DNA of 64,000 nucleotides from a virus. Its lineage: Duplodnaviria; Caudoviricetes. This document shows, in pieces, positions 4,459 to 52,489 of this stretch (the first letter of the stretch is position 1; the number at the start of each line of letters is the position of its first letter). The stretch covers positions 52,065 to 116,064 of the IMG/VR virus record IMGVR_UViG_3300032330_001742; one strand, given 5' to 3'. The position numbers and the translations under genes are program-made. The notes beneath the pieces are model-generated. The model worked only from the letters and a program-made list of their open reading frames with translations, had not been told where the DNA came from and did no database searches.

Positions 4459-5230
4459 AGGAAAACTTTTTTTAGTAGGAATGCCAATTGGTAATTGGGA
4501 AGATATGTCTGTCAGAGCATACAATTATATTAAAAATGCAAAAAATATTGTTATCGAAAGAGAAGAAGCCTTTAGAGAAATTTGGCCTGCTTTAAATTTA
4601 GATAGAAGTGATGCAAATATAATATCTATTGAGTTTGAATCAAATGAAGGTGAGCCCACAGGGATTCCATATGAACTGCATAATGCAGGAAAGATACTTG
4701 ATTTATTAAACAATGGAGAGGACGTGTTTGTAGTTTCTGATGAAGGAATGCCAGGAGTAGCAGATCCTGGAGCACACATCGTGGCAGAGGCAATTAAAGC
4801 AGGGGTAGAAATAACAGCAACACCTGGTCCTTCAGTAGTAATAGCAGCAGTTTCAGTTACTGGAACAATGCATAATTTTACTTTTGATTCATTTTTACCA
4901 TTTGAAAGAGAAGACAAAAGAGAATTTCTTAAACAAAGAGCAGGACTTGCAACCCCACTTGTTTTAGTATTAAGGACAGTTAAAAATACAGATGGACCTA
5001 ATCCAGTATCTATTTTTAGCAATGAAATTCCAGAGTTTTTAGAGGATGCCTGTGAAATATTTGGATCCAATAGGCATGCAGCACTTTGTTACAATTTAAC
5101 AAGAAAAGATGAAAAGGTAGTAAGAGGAACACTCAAATATCTTAAAGATTATTTTGCTACAGAGGAAAAAAATTTACGTGATCAGATCACTGTAGTTATT
5201 GATAAGAAGTTTGGATCAATGGCTATCTAA
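4451..5230 (+). CDS. rsmI: RsmI-like tetrapyrrole-methylase family SAM methyltransferase
   Basis: LFLVGMPIGNWEDMSVRA, VSDEGMPGVADPG, PGPS, LTR.DE.V.RGT. Confidence 0.8.
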   Translation: MNKGKLFLVGMPIGNWEDMSVRAYNYIKNAKNIVIEREEAFREIWPALNLDRSDANIISIEFESNEGEPTGIPYELHNAGKILDLLNNGEDVFVVSDEGMPGVADPGAHIVAEAIKAGVEITATPGPSVVIAAVSVTGTMHNFTFDSFLPFEREDKREFLKQRAGLATPLVLVLRTVKNTDGPNPVSIFSNEIPEFLEDACEIFGSNRHAALCYNLTRKDEKVVRGTLKYLKDYFATEEKNLRDQITVVIDKKFGSMAI

Positions 5231-6647
5231 TAATAGATTGCTTGTATGTTTTTTCCCATAGTTTAATGTCATTTTCGTCATTGAGCAAAGGCTGCCCCTT
5301 AATGTTTAAACTAGTATTAAGTAAAACTGGTACACCAGTTTCTAGATAAAATTTATTAACTGTTCTCCACAAGCCTCTATGATCATTTCTATTTACTGTT
5401 TGCACTCTAGATGTTCCATCAGCATGAACAACTGAAGGAATTTTTTCTGGTTGTAAACACTTAACAGTGTATTGCATATAAGGAGATGAGAAATCCATAT
5501 CAAACCATTTTGACGCACACTCTTCTAAAACAACTGGAGCAAATGGTCTAAATAGTTCACGTTTCTTAATCATGTTTACTTTATCTTTAATGTTTGGATC
5601 TCTTGGATCAGCCAAAATTGACCTATTGCCAAGTGCACGAGGACCATACTCTGCTCTACCAGTAGCAACAGCAGCAACTCCATCTTTTAATATTGTATCT
5701 ACTATCTTTTGTACTGGGTATTCTCCACCAAGATCATAGCCAAGATAAGGAGTTTCCCAATCAAGGTGCTTGCCATAAAGTGCTGCAGCAGCACCTAAAG
5801 AACTACCAGCATCACCTGGGTTTGGCATAATCCAAATCATATCGAAAAGTTTCCATAGCGCTGTATTAGCAGAAGAGTTGAGTGCACAACCACCCATAAA
5901 AACTAAATTCTTTTTACCAGTGATTGCTTTTGCTTCTGCCATAAACTCCATAAGCCTTGTCTGGTACACAACCTGAACAGCAGCAGCAATATCAAACTTA
6001 TCTTGTTCGCCCTTGATCCATCCCCAGTCAGTTATACCTTTGTGAAAGTTATAAGACTGGCTGCGAAAGTTAGGGAAGTACTCGTCAACTTCCTTATAGT
6101 ATCTACGCCAATCACCGTATGCAGCCATGCCCATCATAATGTACTCTTCTTGGTTTGGCATTAGACCAATCAACTGTGTAAATGCAGAGTAGAACAAACC
6201 AAAACTAACAGGATAGTTTTGCTTATATTTTAATTTAATCTTATCACCTTCGCCTACCCAAACGGTAGATGTATTATATTCTCCAATTGCATCTAAGACT
6301 ACAATTACTGCATCATTAAAAGGACTAGTATAGTATCCTGCAGCAGCATGTGAATAATGATGACCAAAAGATTTTCTAGGTACATTAGGAAGGTCAAAGC
6401 GTGGCTTCCAATCCCCTGAACCACCCTTTATAAGCAGCCTGGAGGCCTTTAGAAGGGGTTTTTCATAGTAGGCTATACGATCTGGTAGGCCATGCTGTAA
6501 AGCATCATTAACTAAACTATCATTAACATACCAATCGTTTTTGTTTTTGCTATATCTTTCAGCATGTCCAGCAAATAATATTTTGCCATCTTCAATTAAT
6601 GATACAGATGCATCATGTGAAGTTTCATTAATCCCTAAAATTCTCAT
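5223..6647 (-). CDS. Carbamoyltransferase (NodU/CmcH family)
   Basis: HDASVS, HHYSHAA, DAIGE, GGCALN, GDAG, EYGPRALGNRS, KKRELFRPFAP, LLNTSLN. Confidence 0.93.
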   Translation of the reverse strand: MRILGINETSHDASVSLIEDGKILFAGHAERYSKNKNDWYVNDSLVNDALQHGLPDRIAYYEKPLLKASRLLIKGGSGDWKPRFDLPNVPRKSFGHHYSHAAAGYYTSPFNDAVIVVLDAIGEYNTSTVWVGEGDKIKLKYKQNYPVSFGLFYSAFTQLIGLMPNQEEYIMMGMAAYGDWRRYYKEVDEYFPNFRSQSYNFHKGITDWGWIKGEQDKFDIAAAVQVVYQTRLMEFMAEAKAITGKKNLVFMGGCALNSSANTALWKLFDMIWIMPNPGDAGSSLGAAAALYGKHLDWETPYLGYDLGGEYPVQKIVDTILKDGVAAVATGRAEYGPRALGNRSILADPRDPNIKDKVNMIKKRELFRPFAPVVLEECASKWFDMDFSSPYMQYTVKCLQPEKIPSVVHADGTSRVQTVNRNDHRGLWRTVNKFYLETGVPVLLNTSLNIKGQPLLNDENDIKLWEKTYKQSIIR

Positions 6648-19318: not shown

Positions 19319-19621
19319 CCCAATACTTTACAACAGTTCTAATGGTAGTATGGATATGGCAATCACAGTCTTCTGTGGCTTGATCAAAATGTTCTAAATT
19401 ATCCTCATAAATGAGAGTAACTAATTCGTCTATAGTATAAGGTTTGTATGTTTGGGTCATACATTAATTCTACCCTAAACCTGGCAAAAATACAAGTCCA
19501 TCGTAATTAAATTTTGGTTTGACATTTTGGGAAATATATGCCGACCTTCGTAATTGATTTTGATCATGACATTTTTAGCCGACCCGCATTTTTATGCATT
19601 GGCTTGCATATTTATTTATTG

Positions 19622-19695
19622 CGATTCCGACGGGACTTGAACCCGCAACCTCTACCGTGACAGGGTAGCGATCTAACCAATTGATCTACGGAATC
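19622..19695 (-). tRNA. tRNA-Asp(GUC)
   Basis: GATTCCG/CGGAATC, CTACC-CT GTC AC-GGTAG, TTCAAGT. Confidence 0.93.
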
Positions 19696-19731
19696 GTGTG
19701 AGCAGTTTTACATCATGCTCAGGATTTTGTG

Positions 19732-20754
19732 TTATGCGATTTGCATAACGTTTTGTACAACTTTAAGCAAACGATTCTTCTCTGCGTTAATTGCAGGGTC
19801 AAATCCACTTGCAGATGCTAACATGCTTTCATTGTTACCACCACGTGCAGAGCGATACCAATCAAGGCGTTCTGTAAGTGCATTAAATGCACCCCATGCG
19901 TTACCAGCAATCATACCATTAAATTCACCTGTGTAGATGTCGTTAATTGTATCGATTTTGTTTTCCCACTTAGTTAGCGCACCCTTTGCATCTTTTTCAG
20001 GCTTTGGGTATGCAGCGAGAATGATGTCATTGAAAGACTTAGCATTTACTTCTTTTTCAAAAAGTGCTTTAGCCATAACATCGAATTCGTCCATGTAAGC
20101 ATTAGCAAGACCAAGAGTCTCACGTGCAATTTGAACTTTTCCATTTGCTGTCTGTGTGTGGCGAATCTTGAATGATTGCTTGATATTCTTATTCTTCTTG
20201 CGACCAACGCCACCAAGAGCAAGATTAAGAGTATTAGCGCAAACAACACGAACAGGTGTGATGCTTGCTTGAATTGCGATTGAGCCATCGTGTGATGTGT
20301 TGATGAGCAAATAAGTTTTTACCTTATCTGCAACACCGCTAGGGTCTAGAACTGTCTCACGCTCAAGAGCAAGAGAGCCAAATACTACACGCCCACCCTT
20401 GATTGAACCAGCAGTTTCCCAACGTCCACCACCATCGAGAATGTTATCACCAAATGAAAATAAATCTTCATTCTGCAATGGGTGATAGCGTTCACCAACG
20501 ATTCCCAAAATATCTGTCTGGGTGTTATCTGTAGGGTTAGTACGCAAAACGTACTGATACGCCTTGTCGCTTGTTAGATGTGATGGGGCTTCTAAATCTT
20601 CAAGACGAACATTCCAACCATTAAGATTTGCTGCTTCGAGCATTTCTGTGGTAGACTTTTCTTCTGTGAAGACTGTACCCAATCCATGCCATGCAGGCTC
20701 ACGAAATGATGCAAAAGATGCTACGCCATTTTGTGTTTCGAGGTCATGTGCCAT
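19732..20754 (-). CDS. DUF932 / phage-plasmid TIGR03299-like protein
   Basis: REPAWHGLG, WETAGSIKGGR, YLLINTSHDGS, TPVRVVCANTL, IRHT. Confidence 0.88.
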   Translation of the reverse strand: MAHDLETQNGVASFASFREPAWHGLGTVFTEEKSTTEMLEAANLNGWNVRLEDLEAPSHLTSDKAYQYVLRTNPTDNTQTDILGIVGERYHPLQNEDLFSFGDNILDGGGRWETAGSIKGGRVVFGSLALERETVLDPSGVADKVKTYLLINTSHDGSIAIQASITPVRVVCANTLNLALGGVGRKKNKNIKQSFKIRHTQTANGKVQIARETLGLANAYMDEFDVMAKALFEKEVNAKSFNDIILAAYPKPEKDAKGALTKWENKIDTINDIYTGEFNGMIAGNAWGAFNALTERLDWYRSARGGNNESMLASASGFDPAINAEKNRLLKVVQNVMQIA

Positions 20755-20970
20755 GAGTTTCCTTCTTTCTGTTGTTGTTAATATAAGTATACATGCGCCC
20801 ACTGACAATGTCAAATAGGCTACGTAATGATTGGGGCAATTCAGACATTTCTTAAAGGTGATCTTAAACACAGTGTGATATTGATCACATGGGGCCGACT
20901 CAAAATTTTAAGGTTTTTAGAGGGGCCAGTTTTAATTCATGGCCCAGGAATTTGTTTAGTAGTCCCCCTA

Positions 20971-21381
20971 CTAAAAATCAATTCTGTCGACTGTAGCGCT
21001 AAGCCACGTGATGTTGTCAGAATTATAAGATACAGATTCAAAATCGATATCGTTAACAATTGATTCTACATCTTCGTCATATGGCACCTGAACTGTAACG
21101 TTGTAAGTAACTGAGACCTCAACTTCAACTTCCTTGGTAAGTTCAAAGCCCATTATTTCTGCAATTTCATTTGCTTGGTTTTCTGTAATTGCATCACGTT
21201 CTAGTTCTGCTAGCGTCCAGTGTTGCATGCCCTCTACCATACGGTTACGGTCCGCTGAATCAGAATATGAACGTTGGTTTAACCGCTGAATGAATTCATC
21301 CTTAGATGTAATTGACTCCTGCAGTGCAGTGATTTGTGTTTTGAGAAACTCTTCTGTTGCATTTACTATTGTTTGGTCCAT
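20971..21381 (-). CDS. Hypothetical protein (coiled coil + acidic C-terminus)
   Basis: Start MDQTIV after GAAAG SD. Confidence 0.65.
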   Translation of the reverse strand: MDQTIVNATEEFLKTQITALQESITSKDEFIQRLNQRSYSDSADRNRMVEGMQHWTLAELERDAITENQANEIAEIMGFELTKEVEVEVSVTYNVTVQVPYDEDVESIVNDIDFESVSYNSDNITWLSATVDRIDF

Positions 21382-21624
21382 GGGGGGCCTGCTTTCTGTT
21401 AGTTTGTTTATATTAATTGTACTCGTGGCCACTGACATTTGTCAAGGACCCCTTAGGGTGAGCCTTTTTGGATCGTGCTCAGGATGTCTGCTTCTTTAGG
21501 GCTGCAGTACCCTTGCTCTATAGTATTTCTATAATCGCCCTAATCAGCCTGGCGAATAATGAGAGTTCTTACTTACGACATTGGGCGAGAACACTCTCTA
21601 AACTGCCCCTGTTTCGTTATTTAG

Positions 21625-22047
21625 TTATAGGTAACGAGCAACTGCTTGATAAGTAGAAGTCGAAACTGTTTCCTCATCTGTCATCTGCAAGATACGGATT
21701 GCGTTAGAGATTTCCTCTTTTTGCTCACGATAGTTATAGATAGAGATTGACTCAAAATCCTTTACAGGCTCTTTAGGCAATTCCTTTTCTGCAACTGTGA
21801 TGTCGAAGTCAATGTTTAACTGATTGTTCCAAGAACGATAGTTAGTGCGGAAGTTTTCTGCCTTCTTGATGTTTGCTACTGCATAATCAACAAGTTCCTT
21901 CTGCCAAGCCTTACGAGCCTTTTCATACTTAGCCTCGTTTGCTTCTTGTGATGTGTAATCAAGTTCTAACTTTGCTAGTGCGCCTTCTAGTGCCTTGATA
22001 ACCTTTGGTGTTGCCACCTTTACTGAGATTGCTTTGCTTCGTGCCAT
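21625..22047 (-). CDS. Hypothetical protein
   Basis: SD AAGGA; 140 aa. Confidence 0.7.
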   Translation of the reverse strand: MARSKAISVKVATPKVIKALEGALAKLELDYTSQEANEAKYEKARKAWQKELVDYAVANIKKAENFRTNYRSWNNQLNIDFDITVAEKELPKEPVKDFESISIYNYREQKEEISNAIRILQMTDEETVSTSTYQAVARYL

Positions 22048-22126
22048 TTGGGTCTGTTTCCTTTTCTATTAGTTGGGGGGTGAGTGAGTAGTTTAATTAT
22101 CTCATACTCAGGAGATTTTTGTCAAT

Positions 22127-22294
22127 TTACTTTGCTGTCCAAGTTGTGTAACGAGGCTTTCCATCAACATCAAGTTTTACACGAACACTCTGTCCGTTCT
22201 TGTTTGGTGTGATTTCAAGAATTGTTCCTGTTACCTTTGACTTCTGTGTTGTGAACAAGTCGCCAACCTTGTAAGTTGCTGTATTTACTGCCAT
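22127..22294 (-). CDS. Small SH3/KOW-like protein (not in ORF track)
   Basis: MAVNTATYKVGDLFTTQKSKVTGTI...; own promoter and SD. Confidence 0.65.
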   Translation of the reverse strand: MAVNTATYKVGDLFTTQKSKVTGTILEITPNKNGQSVRVKLDVDGKPRYTTWTAK

Positions 22295-22367
22295 TTGTTT
22301 ATTTCCTTTTCTGTTAGGGGTTTTTGCTTACTGTATTAGTTTAACATTTTTTGGGGAAAATGTCAAA

Positions 22368-22538
22368 TTACTTAGAGGTCTTAACCATAGCCAAACGGCG
22401 TGAGCCATTTGCCAAGACTAGGCTAACTCTGGTAACCTTGTTACTGATTGGTGAGAAACCTGCGATACGACCTGTAACGCCTGTTTTGCTTGTTGTGAAC
22501 AAGTCACCAATTTGGTATGTGTATCCTGAGATTGTCAT
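22368..22538 (-). CDS. Small SH3/KOW-like protein, paralogue of 22127-22294
   Basis: MTISGYTYQIGDLFTTSKTGVTGRI... Confidence 0.65.
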   Translation of the reverse strand: MTISGYTYQIGDLFTTSKTGVTGRIAGFSPISNKVTRVSLVLANGSRRLAMVKTSK

Positions 22539-22768
22539 AGGGGTCTTGCCTTTCTGTTTGGGTTATAGTTTAATTCTACACTAAAAATGTCAAAAATACC
22601 AATCTAAGTGGCATTTTTGGGTGTGATAAAACTCACATCTTAAACAGCGTGTCGTAACTTGACAAGATCAAGATTTTGCGCCGACCCCATTTTCGGGGAC
22701 TTATCAAGTCATTGAATTAAAAATAAATAAAATATTAAGAGTGCAAGCATTAACCAGTACATGTTAAC

Positions 22769-23515
22769 TCATTTCTTACTCGCAGAAAATACAATGTCTG
22801 CTTTAGAGTATACACACAATGAACAAAAAACGCAAGCGCTACCTGCAGTGCTAATAAGTGGAATTGCTTTTTTATTTTCAGGACACTTAGCACCAGGCTT
22901 ACCAATCATTTCTTTCATGTCTGCTTGACCTATTGCGAAATTCTTAGCAAGGTATGCAAGGCGAACACCATTTTTAATTTTAAGGTCAACACCTACTTTT
23001 ACATTTTCGCTATCAGTACTAAAATAAAGAGACAGGTTAGGAATGTCTTTTAAGATAAGTGCTGCAGACTTAACACGTGTATATACCCAGAATTGAATAT
23101 CAGGTTGTTCTTCAATAACCATACGCCATGCGTTGGTATAGTCATCGTTAAAGAAATCTCCGTCCCAGTGAATGCGAAATAGCATAGGGGCGTCTTTCTT
23201 TACACAATCAGTTTTAAACTCAGCAATCATTTCTGAAAGTAGAGTGTACATCGTCTGCAGATCTGAATCTTTAAGTAGGTCCCAGTTATGCAATAGGTTA
23301 GTTTTTACACCCTTGAATAGTTTTTCCAATTTGCCTGCATAGCAAACACTTTCGCAGACAGACGTAGCGCCAGGACATGAATAGTCTTTTCCTGCAGGTA
23401 ATCCGAACGTATTAGCAATTGCGGCTTGCTTTCCATTTTTTGTGACAAGGTTAGCCACCTTTCTATCATTAGAGCGTTTTAATTTAAGTGTAAGTGTATT
23501 AGTAGTCAAGGCCAA
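22769..23515 (-). CDS. Gp88-like Cys-cluster (radical-SAM-related) phage protein
   Basis: FGLPAG..SCPGA..VC...CYA, FRIHWDGDFF, FWVYTR, NLSLYFS.D; exact start uncertain. Confidence 0.75.
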   Translation of the reverse strand: MALTTNTLTLKLKRSNDRKVANLVTKNGKQAAIANTFGLPAGKDYSCPGATSVCESVCYAGKLEKLFKGVKTNLLHNWDLLKDSDLQTMYTLLSEMIAEFKTDCVKKDAPMLFRIHWDGDFFNDDYTNAWRMVIEEQPDIQFWVYTRVKSAALILKDIPNLSLYFSTDSENVKVGVDLKIKNGVRLAYLAKNFAIGQADMKEMIGKPGAKCPENKKAIPLISTAGSACVFCSLCVYSKADIVFSASKK

Positions 23516-23675
23516 GACTCATTTCTAGAGCAATGTCTTCATTATAGGTTGCGGACATTTCTTCTAGCAAGCAATGAGTGCACATTTCTTCTACTTCATC
23601 CACAGCATTTTCATGACATGAAGGACAGGTTGTTGCGTAGTATTCGTCATAGAATTCATCTGCGATATTTCCCAT
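23499..23675 (-). CDS. Small zinc-binding acidic protein
   Basis: SD AGGAG; CPSC...CTHC. Confidence 0.55.
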   Translation of the reverse strand: MGNIADEFYDEYYATTCPSCHENAVDEVEEMCTHCLLEEMSATYNEDIALEMSLGLDY

Positions 23676-23679
23676 GGGG

Positions 23680-23838
23680 CTATTCTCCTTTTTGTTGATA
23701 TTTATATTGTAGCATTTGTGACTGACATTTTCTACCCTTGCGAGTATATGCCTTTTTAGAGGGCACAGCGGAAGCAGCGTTAGACCTACGTAACTCCATG
23801 AGTCTACGTAATTCTTCTTCTGTTTTCTTTTGCGTCAT
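23680..23838 (-). CDS. Small basic protein
   Basis: Leaderless after TTGACA...TAGGAT; ELRRSNAA...KKAYTRK. Confidence 0.55.
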   Translation of the reverse strand: MTQKKTEEELRRLMELRRSNAASAVPSKKAYTRKGRKCQSQMLQYKYQQKGE

Positions 23839-23949
23839 ATAACTATCCTAACACATAGGGGAAAAAATGTCAACTTCTTAAATGTGATTAATCTCACATG
23901 CGACACGCCGTCGGAGTCGGCTTGCATTTTTATGCAGAGTGATGAATTT

Positions 23950-24192
23950 TTATTCTTCTATATCTTCATCATGCGGATAGTATAAATTAAATGTTGCGTA
24001 GTCATCAACTTCAATTAAATCTGATTCTTCATAGTTATCTAAATACATTATTGCATAACCATCAGATAGTGGAGTAATGCCAACTACCTGCACAATTTCT
24101 CCATTGACTGAAATAAAATCATCAACTTCTAATTGATCAACGTTGAGTGTATCTACTTTTTTGAAATCCATAGTTTTTATTCTATCACCCAT
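23950..24192 (-). CDS. Hypothetical beta-rich protein
   Basis: ORF in operon. Confidence 0.6.
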   Translation of the reverse strand: MGDRIKTMDFKKVDTLNVDQLEVDDFISVNGEIVQVVGITPLSDGYAIMYLDNYEESDLIEVDDYATFNLYYPHDEDIEE

Positions 24193-24195
24193 TTT

Positions 24196-24486
24196 TTATT
24201 CCTCATCTTCTTCTGGGTTAATAAACCAATCAAGGTGGTGCTGTTCAATAATTGCCCACGCAGGTGCTTGCTTGCTACCCTTATAAGTAATTTGAAATTC
24301 ACCAACCATTGGCATATCAATCATTCGATTAAAGTCTTCTTCATAGGCTGCATCAATAGCATCTATGCAAGGCTTCACCATTTCTGCGGGGACAGGTGGA
24401 TAGTGATTACCTTTAAGGTGATAAAGTAACTGTGTTTCTAAATCAAGGACGCTATCTGCTAATCCAATTGCTGTAACTGAACCCAT
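24196..24486 (-). CDS. Conserved phage hypothetical protein
   Basis: HL.GNHYPPVP...AIIEQHHL. Confidence 0.7.
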   Translation of the reverse strand: MGSVTAIGLADSVLDLETQLLYHLKGNHYPPVPAEMVKPCIDAIDAAYEEDFNRMIDMPMVGEFQITYKGSKQAPAWAIIEQHHLDWFINPEEDEE

Positions 24487-24487
24487 A

Positions 24488-24697
24488 TTATTTCACGCTC
24501 ACATTTCCGTTGCGGTAGAAAGTCTTAGTGTACATCTTGCCAGTAGGGTCTGACAAGTTATAGGTTGCATATTCTTTAGCGTCACCAAAGTCTACACACT
24601 TATTCCATGCAGATACCATTTCAAGCATATCTGCACTTCGTGTTGTTGATACAAGTTCTCCGTCATAGGAGATAGTTAGTGAGTAGTTATATTCCAT
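24488..24697 (-). CDS. Hypothetical protein
   Basis: Coupled ORF. Confidence 0.6.
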   Translation of the reverse strand: MEYNYSLTISYDGELVSTTRSADMLEMVSAWNKCVDFGDAKEYATYNLSDPTGKMYTKTFYRNGNVSVK

Positions 24698-24840
24698 TAG
24701 TTAGCCTCTTTCGTTGTAAATAGTGCACCCTCATTAAGTAAGCCTAATTCTAAATTAAACTTCTCATCTTCATTTGCTTGCGCTAAGTCTATCCAACCTG
24801 CGCCATCGTTGTCAATTCTAAATATTTCTACATATCCCAT
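24697..24840 (-). CDS. Small hypothetical protein
   Basis: SD GGAG; MGYVEIFRIDNDGAGWIDL. Confidence 0.55.
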   Translation of the reverse strand: MGYVEIFRIDNDGAGWIDLAQANEDEKFNLELGLLNEGALFTTKEAN

Positions 24841-24843
24841 TAT

Positions 24844-25044
24844 TTATTCTCCTGTCTTTACTGCAATAGTGCGGAATGCGTATCCACCCATAGGCTTGCG
24901 TACTTCTACAAGATAACTTTCGCAATCTTGATACCAAACTGCATGAGGGTGCTTTTCTGCGGAGATAATTTCTCCTGTTAAAGTATTTGAGTAATACTGA
25001 GTTCCTACTAATAGGGACTCGATAGAGTAGACATTTGCTGACAT
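24844..25044 (-). CDS. Hypothetical protein
   Basis: Start MSANVY after GAAGG SD. Confidence 0.6.
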   Translation of the reverse strand: MSANVYSIESLLVGTQYYSNTLTGEIISAEKHPHAVWYQDCESYLVEVRKPMGGYAFRTIAVKTGE

Positions 25045-25324
25045 AGGGGTTACCTTCTTTTCTTTTGTTGATACTAGTATCCTATCAGATAGGGCTGACA
25101 TTTCCTAAACGACACGCCGTAACGATAGAATCTTTCTTTATTTATTTTTTCTTACTATGTAAGTCTAGCCTATAATGTCAAAAATATCAACTTACTAGCG
25201 AGTATTCTTAAATAATGAGACGCTCAAACTGTGTGAGAAAAATCACATCGTACGTAAACCACGACACGCCCGAGTGCGTCGGCCCCAAAAATGAGCAGTT
25301 TTAGATCATGCTCAGGATTTTATT

Positions 25325-25477
25325 TTATTTTCGGGAATCTAATTCGTTATAGAGTTCATTTAGTTCACGACGCAAATAAAAATTATCTACCATCGCATAA
25401 CTGATAACAACAATTGAACCAATGAGTGCAATTAACACAGCCCATACAGTTCCTAAATCAAAATAGTATTTATCCAT
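25325..25477 (-). CDS. Small membrane protein
   Basis: MDKYYFDLG + TM helix. Confidence 0.5.
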   Translation of the reverse strand: MDKYYFDLGTVWAVLIALIGSIVVISYAMVDNFYLRRELNELYNELDSRK

Positions 25478-25649
25478 TTTTTTCACAAGCCTCTCTGAAT
25501 TTTTCATAGTTAAAGTTTGGATTATCTGCAAAAAACATATCTCCAAAATCAGCGACCAAATCTTCAAAAACAACTTGGTCAATTAGATTTACATAGTCGT
25601 TAAGTAAATCAGCAACAGCGATAAAAGTTTTACGAGTATAAATTGCCAT
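25470..25649 (-). CDS. Small hypothetical protein
   Basis: TRKTFIAVADLL...F.ADNPNF..EKFREAC. Confidence 0.6.
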   Translation of the reverse strand: MAIYTRKTFIAVADLLNDYVNLIDQVVFEDLVADFGDMFFADNPNFNYEKFREACEKNG

Positions 25650-51638: not shown

Positions 51639-52489
51639 AAAATATTCTTGTAAATATTTATTCTTATAAAGAAAAAGATCTAATTTCTTTTATTGACTCT
51701 TTGATTGAAAAAAGTTCTAAAAATAATAATATTTATTTTTATATTAATGATCAAAATAACTTAACAAGATTAAGAAAATTTGTTGGGTATAAAAATGTTT
51801 TTTATAATGTAATCTGGTGGGATGAATTACAAAGTCCAAACTATCATATTGCAAAAACAATAGATGAAAACTCAGCAGGAAATTATGATTATGCATTAAT
51901 CATTAAGAGAAGTATTGGGATGCCACAAAATTGGGACCAGGACTTAATAAGTAATTTACCAGAAAACTCTGTTTTATCTGGCATGGGTACCGTAAATCCA
52001 AAAATTAAAAACAATTTTTATATAGATAAAAATATTGGAATAAGCAATACAATAACAAAAACATCTTATGCTGATTCATCTTTTATGTTTGGTAAGTATT
52101 CAGATATTCTTAAAATTGAAAAACCATTATTTATAAAATATTATGGTGAAGATGAATACATCTCAATGTCCTTGTTGAATCAAAAAATTGATATATTGTC
52201 TCTTCCTTCTGGCTATTATACGTATCAAACACCAGAACTTCACAAGCGTGGCTATGTGCCATTTTCATTGCATCATAACTATAATGAGGTAATTAGACTA
52301 CTTCTTGGCAAATCAACTACTAAAATAAAGCCAATATCTCCAAATCAATTTATAGAGTCAAATAATTTAGTTTTGGACGGTCTAAATGAATTACCATTTG
52401 ACTTTAATGATATTGAGTATGATAGATCTTCTCCTTTAGATAATATTGGTGGTAAAAGATATATAGATACATTAAATGAGGTATCATGA
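51620..52489 (+). CDS. Divergent GlcNAc-transferase-like protein
   Basis: ILVNIYSYKEKDL, NWD..L, YYGEDE echo 37547; DSH motif absent. Confidence 0.55.
   Translation: MDTTNIKNILVNIYSYKEKDLISFIDSLIEKSSKNNNIYFYINDQNNLTRLRKFVGYKNVFYNVIWWDELQSPNYHIAKTIDENSAGNYDYALIIKRSIGMPQNWDQDLISNLPENSVLSGMGTVNPKIKNNFYIDKNIGISNTITKTSYADSSFMFGKYSDILKIEKPLFIKYYGEDEYISMSLLNQKIDILSLPSGYYTYQTPELHKRGYVPFSLHHNYNEVIRLLLGKSTTKIKPISPNQFIESNNLVLDGLNELPFDFNDIEYDRSSPLDNIGGKRYIDTLNEVS

Follow-up and report, generated by a model that had tools for sequence, protein, structure and literature searches.

The DNA analyzed here, hereafter called the window, is the 3′ 64 kb (64,000 nucleotides) of a 116,064-bp single-contig phage genome with 36% GC (Caudoviricetes; IMG/VR record IMGVR_UViG_3300032330_001742, positions 52,065 to 116,064). 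Its minus strand carries five copies of a compact H-type RNA pseudoknot, and the claim that this fold is under selection, made in an initial annotation of the window, was fully supported by relatives from phages and bacteria. The placement of these relatives with respect to genes marks the knot as a 3′-untranslated region (3′-UTR) element of the gene upstream. We favor the reading, with a probability of about 0.4, that the knot is a roadblock shielding the 3′ end of the upstream message. The initial annotation had suggested a 3′-end protection, processing, or antitermination element belonging to no named family.

Five pseudoknots in a minus-strand island of the window

All five knots are located within a 5.6-kb island of the minus strand, which consists of small early genes with promoter-like sites of their own (Table 1). 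Both a pattern search and a covariance model recovered each of the copies listed in the initial annotation. A loose anchor pattern gave six matches in the window against 0.83 expected, the sixth of which (position 622, plus strand) is due to chance. The covariance model, whose construction had been proposed together with the annotation, was trained on relatives plus the five window copies, so that only the score gap to other sequence is informative; the five copies scored 33 to 52 bits and were clearly separated from the next best match in the window (13 bits). A pattern scan of the whole genome revealed no further copies in the remainder of the 116 kb, and an anchor-free search for pseudoknots with a 3-bp and a 6-bp stem was uninformative, yielding 52 chance matches in the genome.

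The window copies are 27 to 32 bases long and follow a shared plan. The 5′ arm of stem 1 is followed by a C, the 5′ arm of stem 2 (of the type U(G/A)(A/G)NNA), a single base, and the 3′ arm of stem 1, after which come at least two bases and AAAC (AAAAAG in copy 3) and, finally, the 3′ arm of stem 2. The stems originally described were all found, with a correction for copy 3: its stem 2 comprises 5 bp with an A·G apposition at the inner end, and it lies 140 nt past its open reading frame (ORF), behind a conserved noncoding stretch.

Table 1. Pseudoknot copies and adjoining RNA features of the window (DNA letters; arms given as 5′/3′)
Feature	Position	Strand	Stem 1	Loop 1	Stem 2	Loop 2	Loop 3	Remarks
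Copy 1	25292-25318	-	ATC/GAT	C	TGAGCA/TGCTCA	T	CTAAAAC	
Copy 2	22085-22116	-	ATCTC/GAGAT		TGAGTA/TACTCA		AATTAAAC	
Copy 3	21459-21485	-	ATC/GAT		5 bp (GAGC.../GGCTC-type register)	C	ending AAAAAG	
Copy 4	20923-20952	-	AATTC/GAATT	CT	GGGCCA/TGGCCC		AAAAC	
Copy 5	19699-19725	-	ATC/GAT		TGAGCA/TGCTCA		GTAAAAC	
tRNA-Asp (GTC)	19621-19695	-						directly downstream of copy 5
Conserved noncoding stretch	21486-21556	-						ends in copy 3

Four of the copies had been placed 6 to 18 nt behind a stop codon, and the spacers between stop and stem 1 are indeed 6, 10, 18, and 6 nt. Copy 1 starts 6 nt past the TAA of an ORF at 25325-25582, copy 2 starts 10 nt past the stop of a 55-aa ORF at 22127-22294, copy 4 starts 18 nt past the stop of an ORF at 20971-21438, and copy 5 starts 6 nt past the TAA of a DUF932-like ORF at 19732-20766. 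The DUF932-like protein of the window is ∼52% identical to Streptomyces phage proteins. Also as annotated, copy 5 stands just 5′ of tRNA-Asp, ending 3 nt ahead of it, and this order of gene, knot, and tRNA-Asp is kept in ∼40 related contigs. The statement that no copy has a U tract was wrong: directly 3′ of copy 1 is TTTTT, followed by a GC hairpin, a TGTGA-N6-TCACA site, and a promoter. Copy 2 is intercistronic, with its end 37 nt ahead of the ATG of an ORF at 21625-22047. Copy 3 is followed by a small CCC-TAAG-GGG hairpin, with a -35 box 13 nt on (promoter 21445-21416), and copy 4 has a promoter region downstream. Copies 1, 3, and 4 are the last structured elements ahead of the next promoter in the window. 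A terminator scan of the island detected canonical terminators no more often than expected by chance.

A near-consensus promoter-like site with TG, TTGACA-18-GATAAT (22125-22096, minus strand), overlaps copy 2. Its -10 box is the 3′ arm of stem 1, and the same overlap is kept in L034 (L numbers are labels of related loci or contigs from the scans described below).

Both stems covary among relatives

An exact-pattern scan of IMG/VR yielded at least 118 contigs, and a scan of one genome per GTDB species yielded at least 117 contigs carrying the motif. The statistics given for relatives (n = 427, 447, 236, 152, and 149) were drawn from the IMG/VR and GTDB matches listed. A broadened descriptor, which fixes only the closing C-G pair, the loop 1 C, and an AAA(A/C/G) tail, detected 447 elements in 2.07 Mb of the listed contigs compared with 21 in shuffled sequence.

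That both stems change in a compensatory manner was strongly borne out by the relatives. The third pair of stem 1, which was unconstrained by the patterns, was Watson-Crick in 423 of 427 copies and occurred in all four types (A-U, 194; G-C, 151; U-A, 39; C-G, 39), with two U·G and two unpaired cases; in the smaller alignment it was paired in 148 of 149 sequences. The second pair was U-A in 349, A-U in 70, and C-G in 8 of the 427, and the closing C-G was present in 174 of 187 copies. Within the window, the third-to-closing pairs read AUC/GAU, CUC/GAG, and UUC/GAA. When the 3′ arm of stem 2 was left free, the number of pairs was bimodal, with either 0 to 3 (background) or 5 to 6, and changes on both sides were found in four of the six pairs. 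Compensated variants of this stem included TAAGCA/TGCTTA, TGGACA/TGTCCA, TAGACA/TGTCTA, TGGGCA/TGCCCA, and GGGCCA/TGGCCC. The same was seen in orthologs: TGAGTA/TACTCA of window copy 2 corresponds to TGAGCA/TGCTCA in L034, with stem 1 and loop 3 identical, and TGAGCA/TGCTCA of window copy 1 corresponds to TGAACA/TGTTC- in L044. Sliding the partner columns by 1 to 3 positions reduced the share of paired cells from 93% to 25 to 42% (149-sequence alignment).

At least 10 positions of the knot are invariant, and 21 fixed bases recur across phyla. In the 8-nt loop (C-UGAGCA-N), the first C and the penultimate A are invariant, and the last base is U in 265, A in 106, C in 45, and G in 6 cases. Loop 3 contains an invariant AAA, followed by a C and a U with a conservation of at least 90% each. 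A G directly after stem 2 is rare (1 of 152; 10 of 427), and the loop 1 C therefore stays unpaired. Nested folding sees only the stem 2 hairpin (z-scores of -1.5 to -2.4), and minimum-free-energy folding is blind to the knot. Since two crossing helices both covary, the conserved element is a folded single strand, and since it is strictly co-oriented with the upstream gene, that strand is RNA.

Tandem knots 5 to 86 nt apart were found in L147 (4178-4251), L213 (2569-2630), L009 (7400-7512), L067 (1501-1596), and L073 (1083-1203). The tandem in L213 combines a TGAGCA copy with a TGGGCA/TGCCCA copy.

The knot is positioned relative to the upstream gene

Among the listed relatives, 290 knots had their nearest upstream gene on the same strand and 17 had it on the opposite one. 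Where the coding strand changes, 38 knots were located at convergent junctions, at which a block of genes ends, and 7 at divergent ones. Where ORFs of at least 60 codons end nearby (n = 236), the distance from the stop codon to the knot core was 7 nt in 49 and 8 nt in 29 cases, with a tail up to 29 nt, and was shorter than 7 nt in 4; no such fixed spacing is seen on the downstream side. About one third of the relatives, as well as window copy 3, are more than 40 nt away from any ORF end. Shifted frames close fast past the stop (median, 8 codons in the -1 frame and 5 in the +1 frame), and the UGA contained in the phage knots is out of frame with the ORF, the modal 7 to 8 nt not being multiples of 3.

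A tRNA was present within 30 nt downstream of the knot in 45 relatives and within 30 nt upstream in none. The gap to the tRNA was 1 to 13 nt, and in 31 of the 41 cases of a first set it did not exceed 6 nt. Most of these cases repeat the synteny of DUF932 gene, knot, and tRNA-Asp, but tRNAs for Asn, Arg, Thr, and Glu were also seen. Runs of five or more T within 14 nt downstream were present in 54 of 447 copies versus 7 in a control window. The knot nevertheless does not qualify as an intrinsic terminator, i.e., a GC-rich hairpin with an immediate U tract: T runs are enriched, but they follow a minority of the copies and, in the window, copy 1 only.

Firmicute prophage-like loci have the knot directly next to the 5′ end of the DUF2800 RNA (RF02960), with a 0-nt gap (L142, 5051-5234; L167, 886-1071; L182, 1-163), and the same arrangement is present by sequence in L169, L174, L187, L203, and L234. 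In five loci with the DUF2800 RNA, the knot is located 7 to 9 nt past an ORF ending in ..SELYAIE(A/T)(D/E)L(R/D). Because the knot adjoins this RNA without a gap, the Rfam model RF02960 may lack a conserved 5′ module.

Occurrence in phages and bacteria

Mycobacterium phage Labelle carries one copy, 8 nt past the gp85 stop. In the Lactobacillus phages KC5a, Lj771, and phi jlb1, the knot follows the head-protein gene and is itself followed by TTTTT, in the deep-sea thermophilic phage D6E it is found at the portal/scaffold junction, and crAss-like cr7_1 carries it as well. BLAST matches, which were not checked singly, name phages of Nostoc, Synechococcus, Moorella, Anoxybacillus, and Streptomyces. 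A megablast search with the 6-kb island against cultured phages gave no match. Among the matches listed, GTDB carriers include many Saccharibacteria, Actinomycetes, Acidimicrobiia, Deltaproteobacteria/Syntrophaceae, Aminicenantes, Firmicutes (including an isolate), and others; some of them are surely phage contigs binned into metagenome-assembled genomes (MAGs). No knots were found in 5,426 complete Escherichia coli genomes. In a Leptolyngbyaceae MAG (L144, ∼5980-6090) and a Cloacimonadota MAG (L145, ∼5045-5150), the motif lies between ∼35-nt direct repeats and looks like a spacer of a clustered regularly interspaced short palindromic repeat (CRISPR) array acquired from a knot-carrying phage.

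At least 30 bacterial loci contain the knot within a micro-gene, composed of a promoter-like site, a strong AGGAGG, an ORF of 19 to 23 codons, the knot, and usually an intrinsic terminator (L127, L131, L132, L135, L138, L140, L151, L156, L159, L161 to L163, L171, L172, L177, L179, L181, L183, L188, L197, L205, L211, L213, L214, L216, L217, L223, L227, L230, and L233). The hosts of these GTDB contigs are Deltaproteobacteria, Aminicenantes, Actinomycetes, Acidimicrobiia, and Coriobacteriia, with L181 coming from Syntrophaceae. Two types of peptide are encoded, M(K/R)R(F/Y)x(I/V)PRxAHCx(E/D)GCxxxS and MRWMFPHATHCS(A/T)CGSxRxS, and comparison with Pfam and NCBIfam assigned them to no family, with sub-threshold zinc-ribbon matches only. 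The micro-ORF stops at the UGA within the knot or at a stop in frame with that UGA; the ribosome must melt the knot there. The neighbors of the micro-genes are not conserved; they encode a MerA-like reductase, seryl-tRNA synthetase (SerRS), an ArsM-like methyltransferase, and others.

Relationship to coremin, xrRNA-WCC, and other RNA structures

The knot is new to Rfam and to the searchable literature, but its relative coremin is already known. A search of Rfam 15, likewise proposed with the initial annotation, matched no family: nothing in the window passed the gathering threshold, and between 19500 and 25500 no match with an E value of 10 or below overlapped a knot. A literature search with the knot sequence returned unrelated primers only, and no paper in the searchable literature links coremin or exoribonuclease-resistant RNAs (xrRNAs) to phages or bacteria as a natural element. 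The assertion that the knot has no named family thus holds for Rfam and fails otherwise, since coremin and xrRNA-WCC of eukaryotic RNA viruses are named relatives.

Coremin (xrRNA-C) of beny-, cucumo-, and other eukaryotic RNA viruses has the sequence GUCCGAAGACGUUAAACUAC (Dilweg et al. 2019, PMC6546385; Dilweg et al. 2023, PMC10520033). It is made up of a 3- to 4-bp hairpin (hp1) GUC/GAC with the loop YGAD or YGNNAD, a conserved spacer, and a second hairpin (hp2); it stalls Xrn1 without a protein cofactor, for which hp2 is required, and one version with an octaloop kept Xrn1 resistance (PMC6546385, PMC10520033). Moreover, coremin holds up scanning ribosomes, likewise without a protein cofactor, and acts as a -1 frameshift stimulator, and its variants were screened for frameshifting in E. 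coli (PMC6546385, PMC10520033, PMC10321173). Its three-dimensional structure was described as unsolved in 2023 (PMC10520033, PMC10321173).

As many as 17 of the 20 positions of coremin recur in the knot, identical and colinear (GUCC + AAGACGUUAAACU), and GUCC..AGACGUUAAACU is exact in 11 genome copies and also in phage D6E. The form found in bacteria and D6E, GUCC-UGAGC-AAGACGUUAAACU-GCUCA, equals coremin with G6 swapped for five bases (UGAGC). Stem 1 corresponds to hp1 in being short (3 to 4 bp in coremin) and in its U-A and C-G closing pairs, and it is exactly GUC/GAC in 73 of 117 genome copies. In both RNAs, the first loop base is a C that is needed unpaired, A and a variable base precede the 3′ arm, the spacer ends in UAAAC followed by U, and the usual location is a 3′ UTR just past an ORF. 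To the 8- to 10-nt coremin spacer GUUAAACUAC corresponds GACGUUAAACU, identical in the 11 genome copies and phage D6E. The bases shared with coremin are the invariant ones of the phage alignment, i.e., the UC/GA pairs, the loop 1 C, the A before loop 2, and AAAC-U.

In contrast to coremin, the five bases pair, together with the A that follows them, with the sequence past U19, giving a Watson-Crick stem 2 of 6 bp, and the final AC of the spacer is replaced by the 3′ arm of this stem. The loop comprises 8 nt instead of 4 (YGAD) or 6 (YGNNAD), with G at position 3 rather than 2 and with C, which is outside D, among its last bases, so that the loop rule is only partly kept. No enrichment of hp2 was found: a hairpin was present 0 to 3 nt past stem 2 in 16 of 152 copies, compared with 17.9 ± 4.0 in shuffles, and a small tetraloop hairpin past stem 2 is restricted to a subset, to which window copy 3 belongs. 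Unlike coremin, the knot is carried by DNA phages and by bacteria, and these lack Xrn1.

The xrRNA-WCC elements of Hit1, Hit2, and Sanxia picorna-like virus 5 also stall Xrn1; three of their loop bases pair with spacer bases 18 to 20, and the bridging base 5 is not substitutable (Dilweg et al. 2023, PMC10321173). The knot shares with them the scaffold of hp1 and spacer, an antiparallel canonical stem 2, and a single bridging base in loop 1, and its stem 2 is likewise Watson-Crick, running from loop 1 to the bases after UAAA(C), and covaries. In xrRNA-WCC, however, stem 2 has 3 bp instead of 6 and the loop 1 base is G instead of C. xrRNA-WCC stimulates frameshifting without hp2, yet needs hp2 for Xrn1 resistance. 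Because of its 6-bp stem 2, the partial loop rule, the unenriched hp2, and the DNA phage and bacterial carriers, we file the knot as a variant related to coremin and xrRNA-WCC, not as a member.

Ordinary frameshifting H-type knots fail to stall Xrn1 (PMC10321173). Those of beet western yellows virus, potato leafroll virus, and simian retrovirus 1 (BWYV, PLRV, and SRV-1) resemble the knot in their compact H-type fold, in which the deep groove of stem 2 takes up a short loop 1 and the minor groove of stem 1 takes up an A-rich loop, and in their distance of 5 to 9 nt from a ribosome site. They differ in following a slippery heptamer where the knot follows a stop codon with closed shifted frames, and there is no sequence similarity. 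The T4 gene 32 mRNA pseudoknot is also H-type; its loop 1 bridges a 7-bp stem 2 with 1 nt, and its loop 3 has ∼7 nt. It is found once per genome, in a single 5′ leader, where it serves gp32 autoregulation as the nucleation site; unlike the knot, it is not at gene ends, and it shares no sequence similarity. T7 RNase III sites and repetitive extragenic palindromic (REP) elements are 3′ stabilizing stem-loops left by processing, and the MALAT1 triple helix becomes 3′-terminal, and shields its RNA, by an RNase P cut at the tRNA-like mascRNA. As message-end structures that are 3′-terminal after cleavage just downstream, these follow a logic which the knot may share, but they are plain hairpins or a U-rich triple helix and not this fold.

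A possible shield of message 3′ ends and its alternatives

In the favored reading, the knot is transcribed as part of the RNA of the upstream gene and folds, on the scaffold of coremin and xrRNA-WCC, into a stem 1 of 3 to 5 bp with C-G closing, a 1-base loop 1 (C), a 6-bp stem 2, and a 1-base loop 2; the A-rich loop 3 ending in AAAC should be placed in the minor groove of stem 1. It would act in cis and independently of protein as a mechanical roadblock that marks the 3′ boundary of the upstream message; we infer this roadblock property from the near-identity to coremin. A 3′ end would be made just downstream by the RNase P cut at the adjacent tRNA (copy 5), by termination at the T tract (copy 1), or by cleavage or read-out ahead of the promoter or cistron that comes next (copies 2 to 4), and the knot would then bar 3′-to-5′ exonucleases such as PNPase from the coding region. 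The core lies at least 7 nt past the stop, which is about the end of the mRNA channel of the ribosome, and a terminating ribosome should therefore abut the knot and leave its core unmelted.

We favor a 3′-end shield because all placement statistics tie the knot to the upstream ORF, because the knot is commonest where nothing co-directional follows, and because makers of 3′ ends (the RNase P-cut 5′ end of a tRNA, a T tract) so often follow it. In addition, the 7-nt minimum is what such a cap needs to escape melting with each termination. The combination of knot and TTTTT after the head-protein gene of Lactobacillus phage KC5a speaks in its favor as well. Of the functions suggested in the initial annotation, 3′-end protection or processing best fits the context statistics, but antitermination found no support, since the copies are at gene ends and not behind promoters.

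Several observations weigh against a 3′-end shield. The resistance shown for coremin concerns 5′-to-3′ machinery and not 3′-to-5′ exonucleases (PMC6546385, PMC10520033), and because this relative blocks 5′-to-3′ machinery, the knot may protect in either direction. Copy 2 and many relatives are intercistronic, without an evident 3′-end-forming signal. In the bacterial micro-genes, the stop is located in the knot, and 15 to 40 nt farther on stands a terminator hairpin distinct from it; therefore, the knot there is neither safe from the ribosome nor at the RNA 3′ end. The computed stability of its nested part is modest (-4.6 to -10 kcal/mol). Since a plain GC hairpin would suffice as a 3′ cap, so extreme a conservation of the sequence points to a more specific partner or tertiary fold.

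As the main alternative, the knot could be a true prokaryotic xrRNA, which would block 5′-to-3′ decay by RNase J, or by RNase E scanning in a 5′-end-dependent manner, and save the RNA downstream. The RNA saved might be a tRNA precursor, the DUF2800 RNA, a small RNA, the next cistron, or a short 3′-UTR fragment like subgenomic flavivirus RNA (sfRNA) or BNYVV ncRNA3 (noncoding RNA3 from beet necrotic yellow vein virus). The up to 17 of 20 positions in common with coremin, which like its Watson-Crick variant stalls Xrn1 and is likewise found in 3′ UTRs, argue for this possibility, as does the location of knots 1 to 13 nt 5′ of tRNAs and 0 nt 5′ of the DUF2800 RNA. Firmicutes, Actinobacteria, and Cyanobacteria are phyla carrying RNase J, and the host phyla of cultured-phage carriers are RNase J phyla, with no carriers in E. 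coli; RNase J was found in three of five carrier genomes; that it was not found in two carrier MAGs, both of which are possibly incomplete, speaks against this possibility. Flaviviral xrRNAs reportedly also stop bacterial RNase J1 in vitro (one study). Nevertheless, we consider this explanation doubtful. The spacing is coupled to the upstream stop and not to downstream features, knots are five times commoner at convergent than at divergent junctions, they are rare in 5′ UTRs at operon starts, and what comes after three of the five window copies is a promoter and not an RNA in need of protection. Moreover, hp2, which coremin needs against Xrn1, is not enriched (16 versus 17.9 expected), ordinary frameshifting H-type knots do not stall this enzyme, and the leader of a tRNA is cut off by RNase P anyway.

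What all contexts have in common is an ORF end, which would also be expected if the knot were directed at the ribosome, by holding or slowing it at termination, by stopping read-through or post-termination sliding into the RNA beyond (tRNA, small RNA, or terminator), or by stalling it on the micro-ORF codons before the stop. The 7-nt lower bound and mode equal the spacer of frameshift and read-through knots, and with the stop codon in the A site, the knot would stand where mRNA enters the ribosome. Scanning ribosomes are blocked by coremin, which also promotes -1 frameshifting, and in at least 30 loci of bacteria, a conserved ORF of 19 to 23 codons ends on the UGA of the knot or on an in-frame stop. 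A ribosomal role is nonetheless unlikely, given that both shifted frames close a median of 8 and 5 codons beyond the stop, that the UGA is out of frame with phage ORFs, that copy 3 and about one third of the relatives are >40 nt from any ORF end, and that a reading of copies by eye, though not a systematic scan, showed no slippery site upstream of them. Quite improbable is a protein-binding site, e.g., an operator like that of T4 gene 32 or an endonuclease site, or a signal cleaved by itself or by RNase P that parts ORFs from adjacent RNAs. Unrelated phyla of phages and cells share no obvious accessory protein, the relative coremin works without protein, no Rfam ribozyme family matches, and stem 2 is not followed by a conserved NCCA. 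At 27 nt, the knot is, to our knowledge, smaller than any natural self-cleaver, which counts against self-cleavage. Such a role would, however, explain the at least 10 invariant positions and 21 fixed bases across phyla, which are more than a simple roadblock needs, the architecture shared with the T4 gene 32 knot (a 1-nt loop 1 over a 6- to 7-bp stem 2, a ∼7-nt loop 3), the position at boundaries of ORFs with tRNAs and structured RNAs, and the tandem copies in L147, L213, and L009.

Other candidates were ruled out: a stimulator of -1 frameshifting or read-through, as the shifted frames are closed; selenocysteine insertion at the UGA of the knot, which is out of frame with phage ORFs and has UGG variants; a boxA-like or anti-Shine-Dalgarno function of UGCUCA and UCCU, the bases of which covary as stems; and a DNA-level site (cruciform, nick, or integration), given the covarying crossing helices and the strict co-orientation with the upstream gene. 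Nor is an apical loop like that of a selenocysteine insertion sequence (SECIS) apparent in the knot.

Implications

Boundaries of bacterial and phage mRNAs are usually explained by hairpins, terminators, and RNase sites, and we know of no natural nuclease-proof tertiary fold in prokaryotes. Here, a 27-nt knot of near-coremin sequence is placed with nucleotide precision after stops in hundreds of phages and cellular genomes. We tentatively put forward that it might be the first xrRNA (resistant to exoribonucleases or ribosomes) native to prokaryotes, with a coremin fold shared by descent or convergence among DNA phages, bacteria, and eukaryotic RNA viruses. It would serve as a protein-free insulator against RNase J, scanning RNase E, PNPase, and ribosomes at gene boundaries and, in bacteria, be wired to a conserved 20-codon micro-ORF that has its stop within the knot. 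If the knot does resist exonucleases or ribosomes, the xrRNA concept of eukaryotic RNA viruses would come to include DNA phages and bacteria, modeling would gain a natural coremin of the Watson-Crick kind with rich covariation, and a tiny portable part would be at hand with which to stabilize or insulate transcripts in hosts that are Gram-positive or actinobacterial. These proposals are directly testable in cultured carriers (Mycobacterium phage Labelle, Lactobacillus phage KC5a, and phage D6E).

Other conserved elements near the knots

The conserved noncoding stretch ahead of copy 3 contains a TTCGCC..GGGCGA hairpin, a CTATAG-AAATA-CTATAG hairpin, and a variable hairpin with pairing between its loop and a tract farther downstream. 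This stretch of ∼70 nt was found in at least 13 related loci (L008, L014, L018, L029, L040, L044, L065, L066, L077, L083, L086, L098, and L109). It always ends in a knot of the AAAAAG-GCTC subtype, and in L029 and L040 another knot precedes it. The stretch is a candidate small RNA, for which Rfam gave no match.

Between the knots and the next TTGACA promoters (20880-25270, minus strand), TGTGA-N6-TCACA palindromes (CRP/GlxR-like) and a recurring GC hairpin with GGCGTGTCG were found; related contigs have TTATCCACA (DnaA-box-like) repeats in this position. The promoter-like sites at 21416-21445 and 20786-20814 (both minus strand) contain TGTCAGTG in the spacer just past TTGACA, e.g., TTGACAaaTGTCAGTGg...TACAAT, and this motif is also present 3′ of the knot in L018, L051, L066, L083, and L109. 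The adjacent ORFs at 22127-22294 and 22368-22538 (both minus strand) are paralogs of 55 to 56 aa with the pattern ..Y.(V/I)GDLFTT.K..VTG.., each with a promoter-like site, and homologs of them lie ahead of knots in several related contigs.

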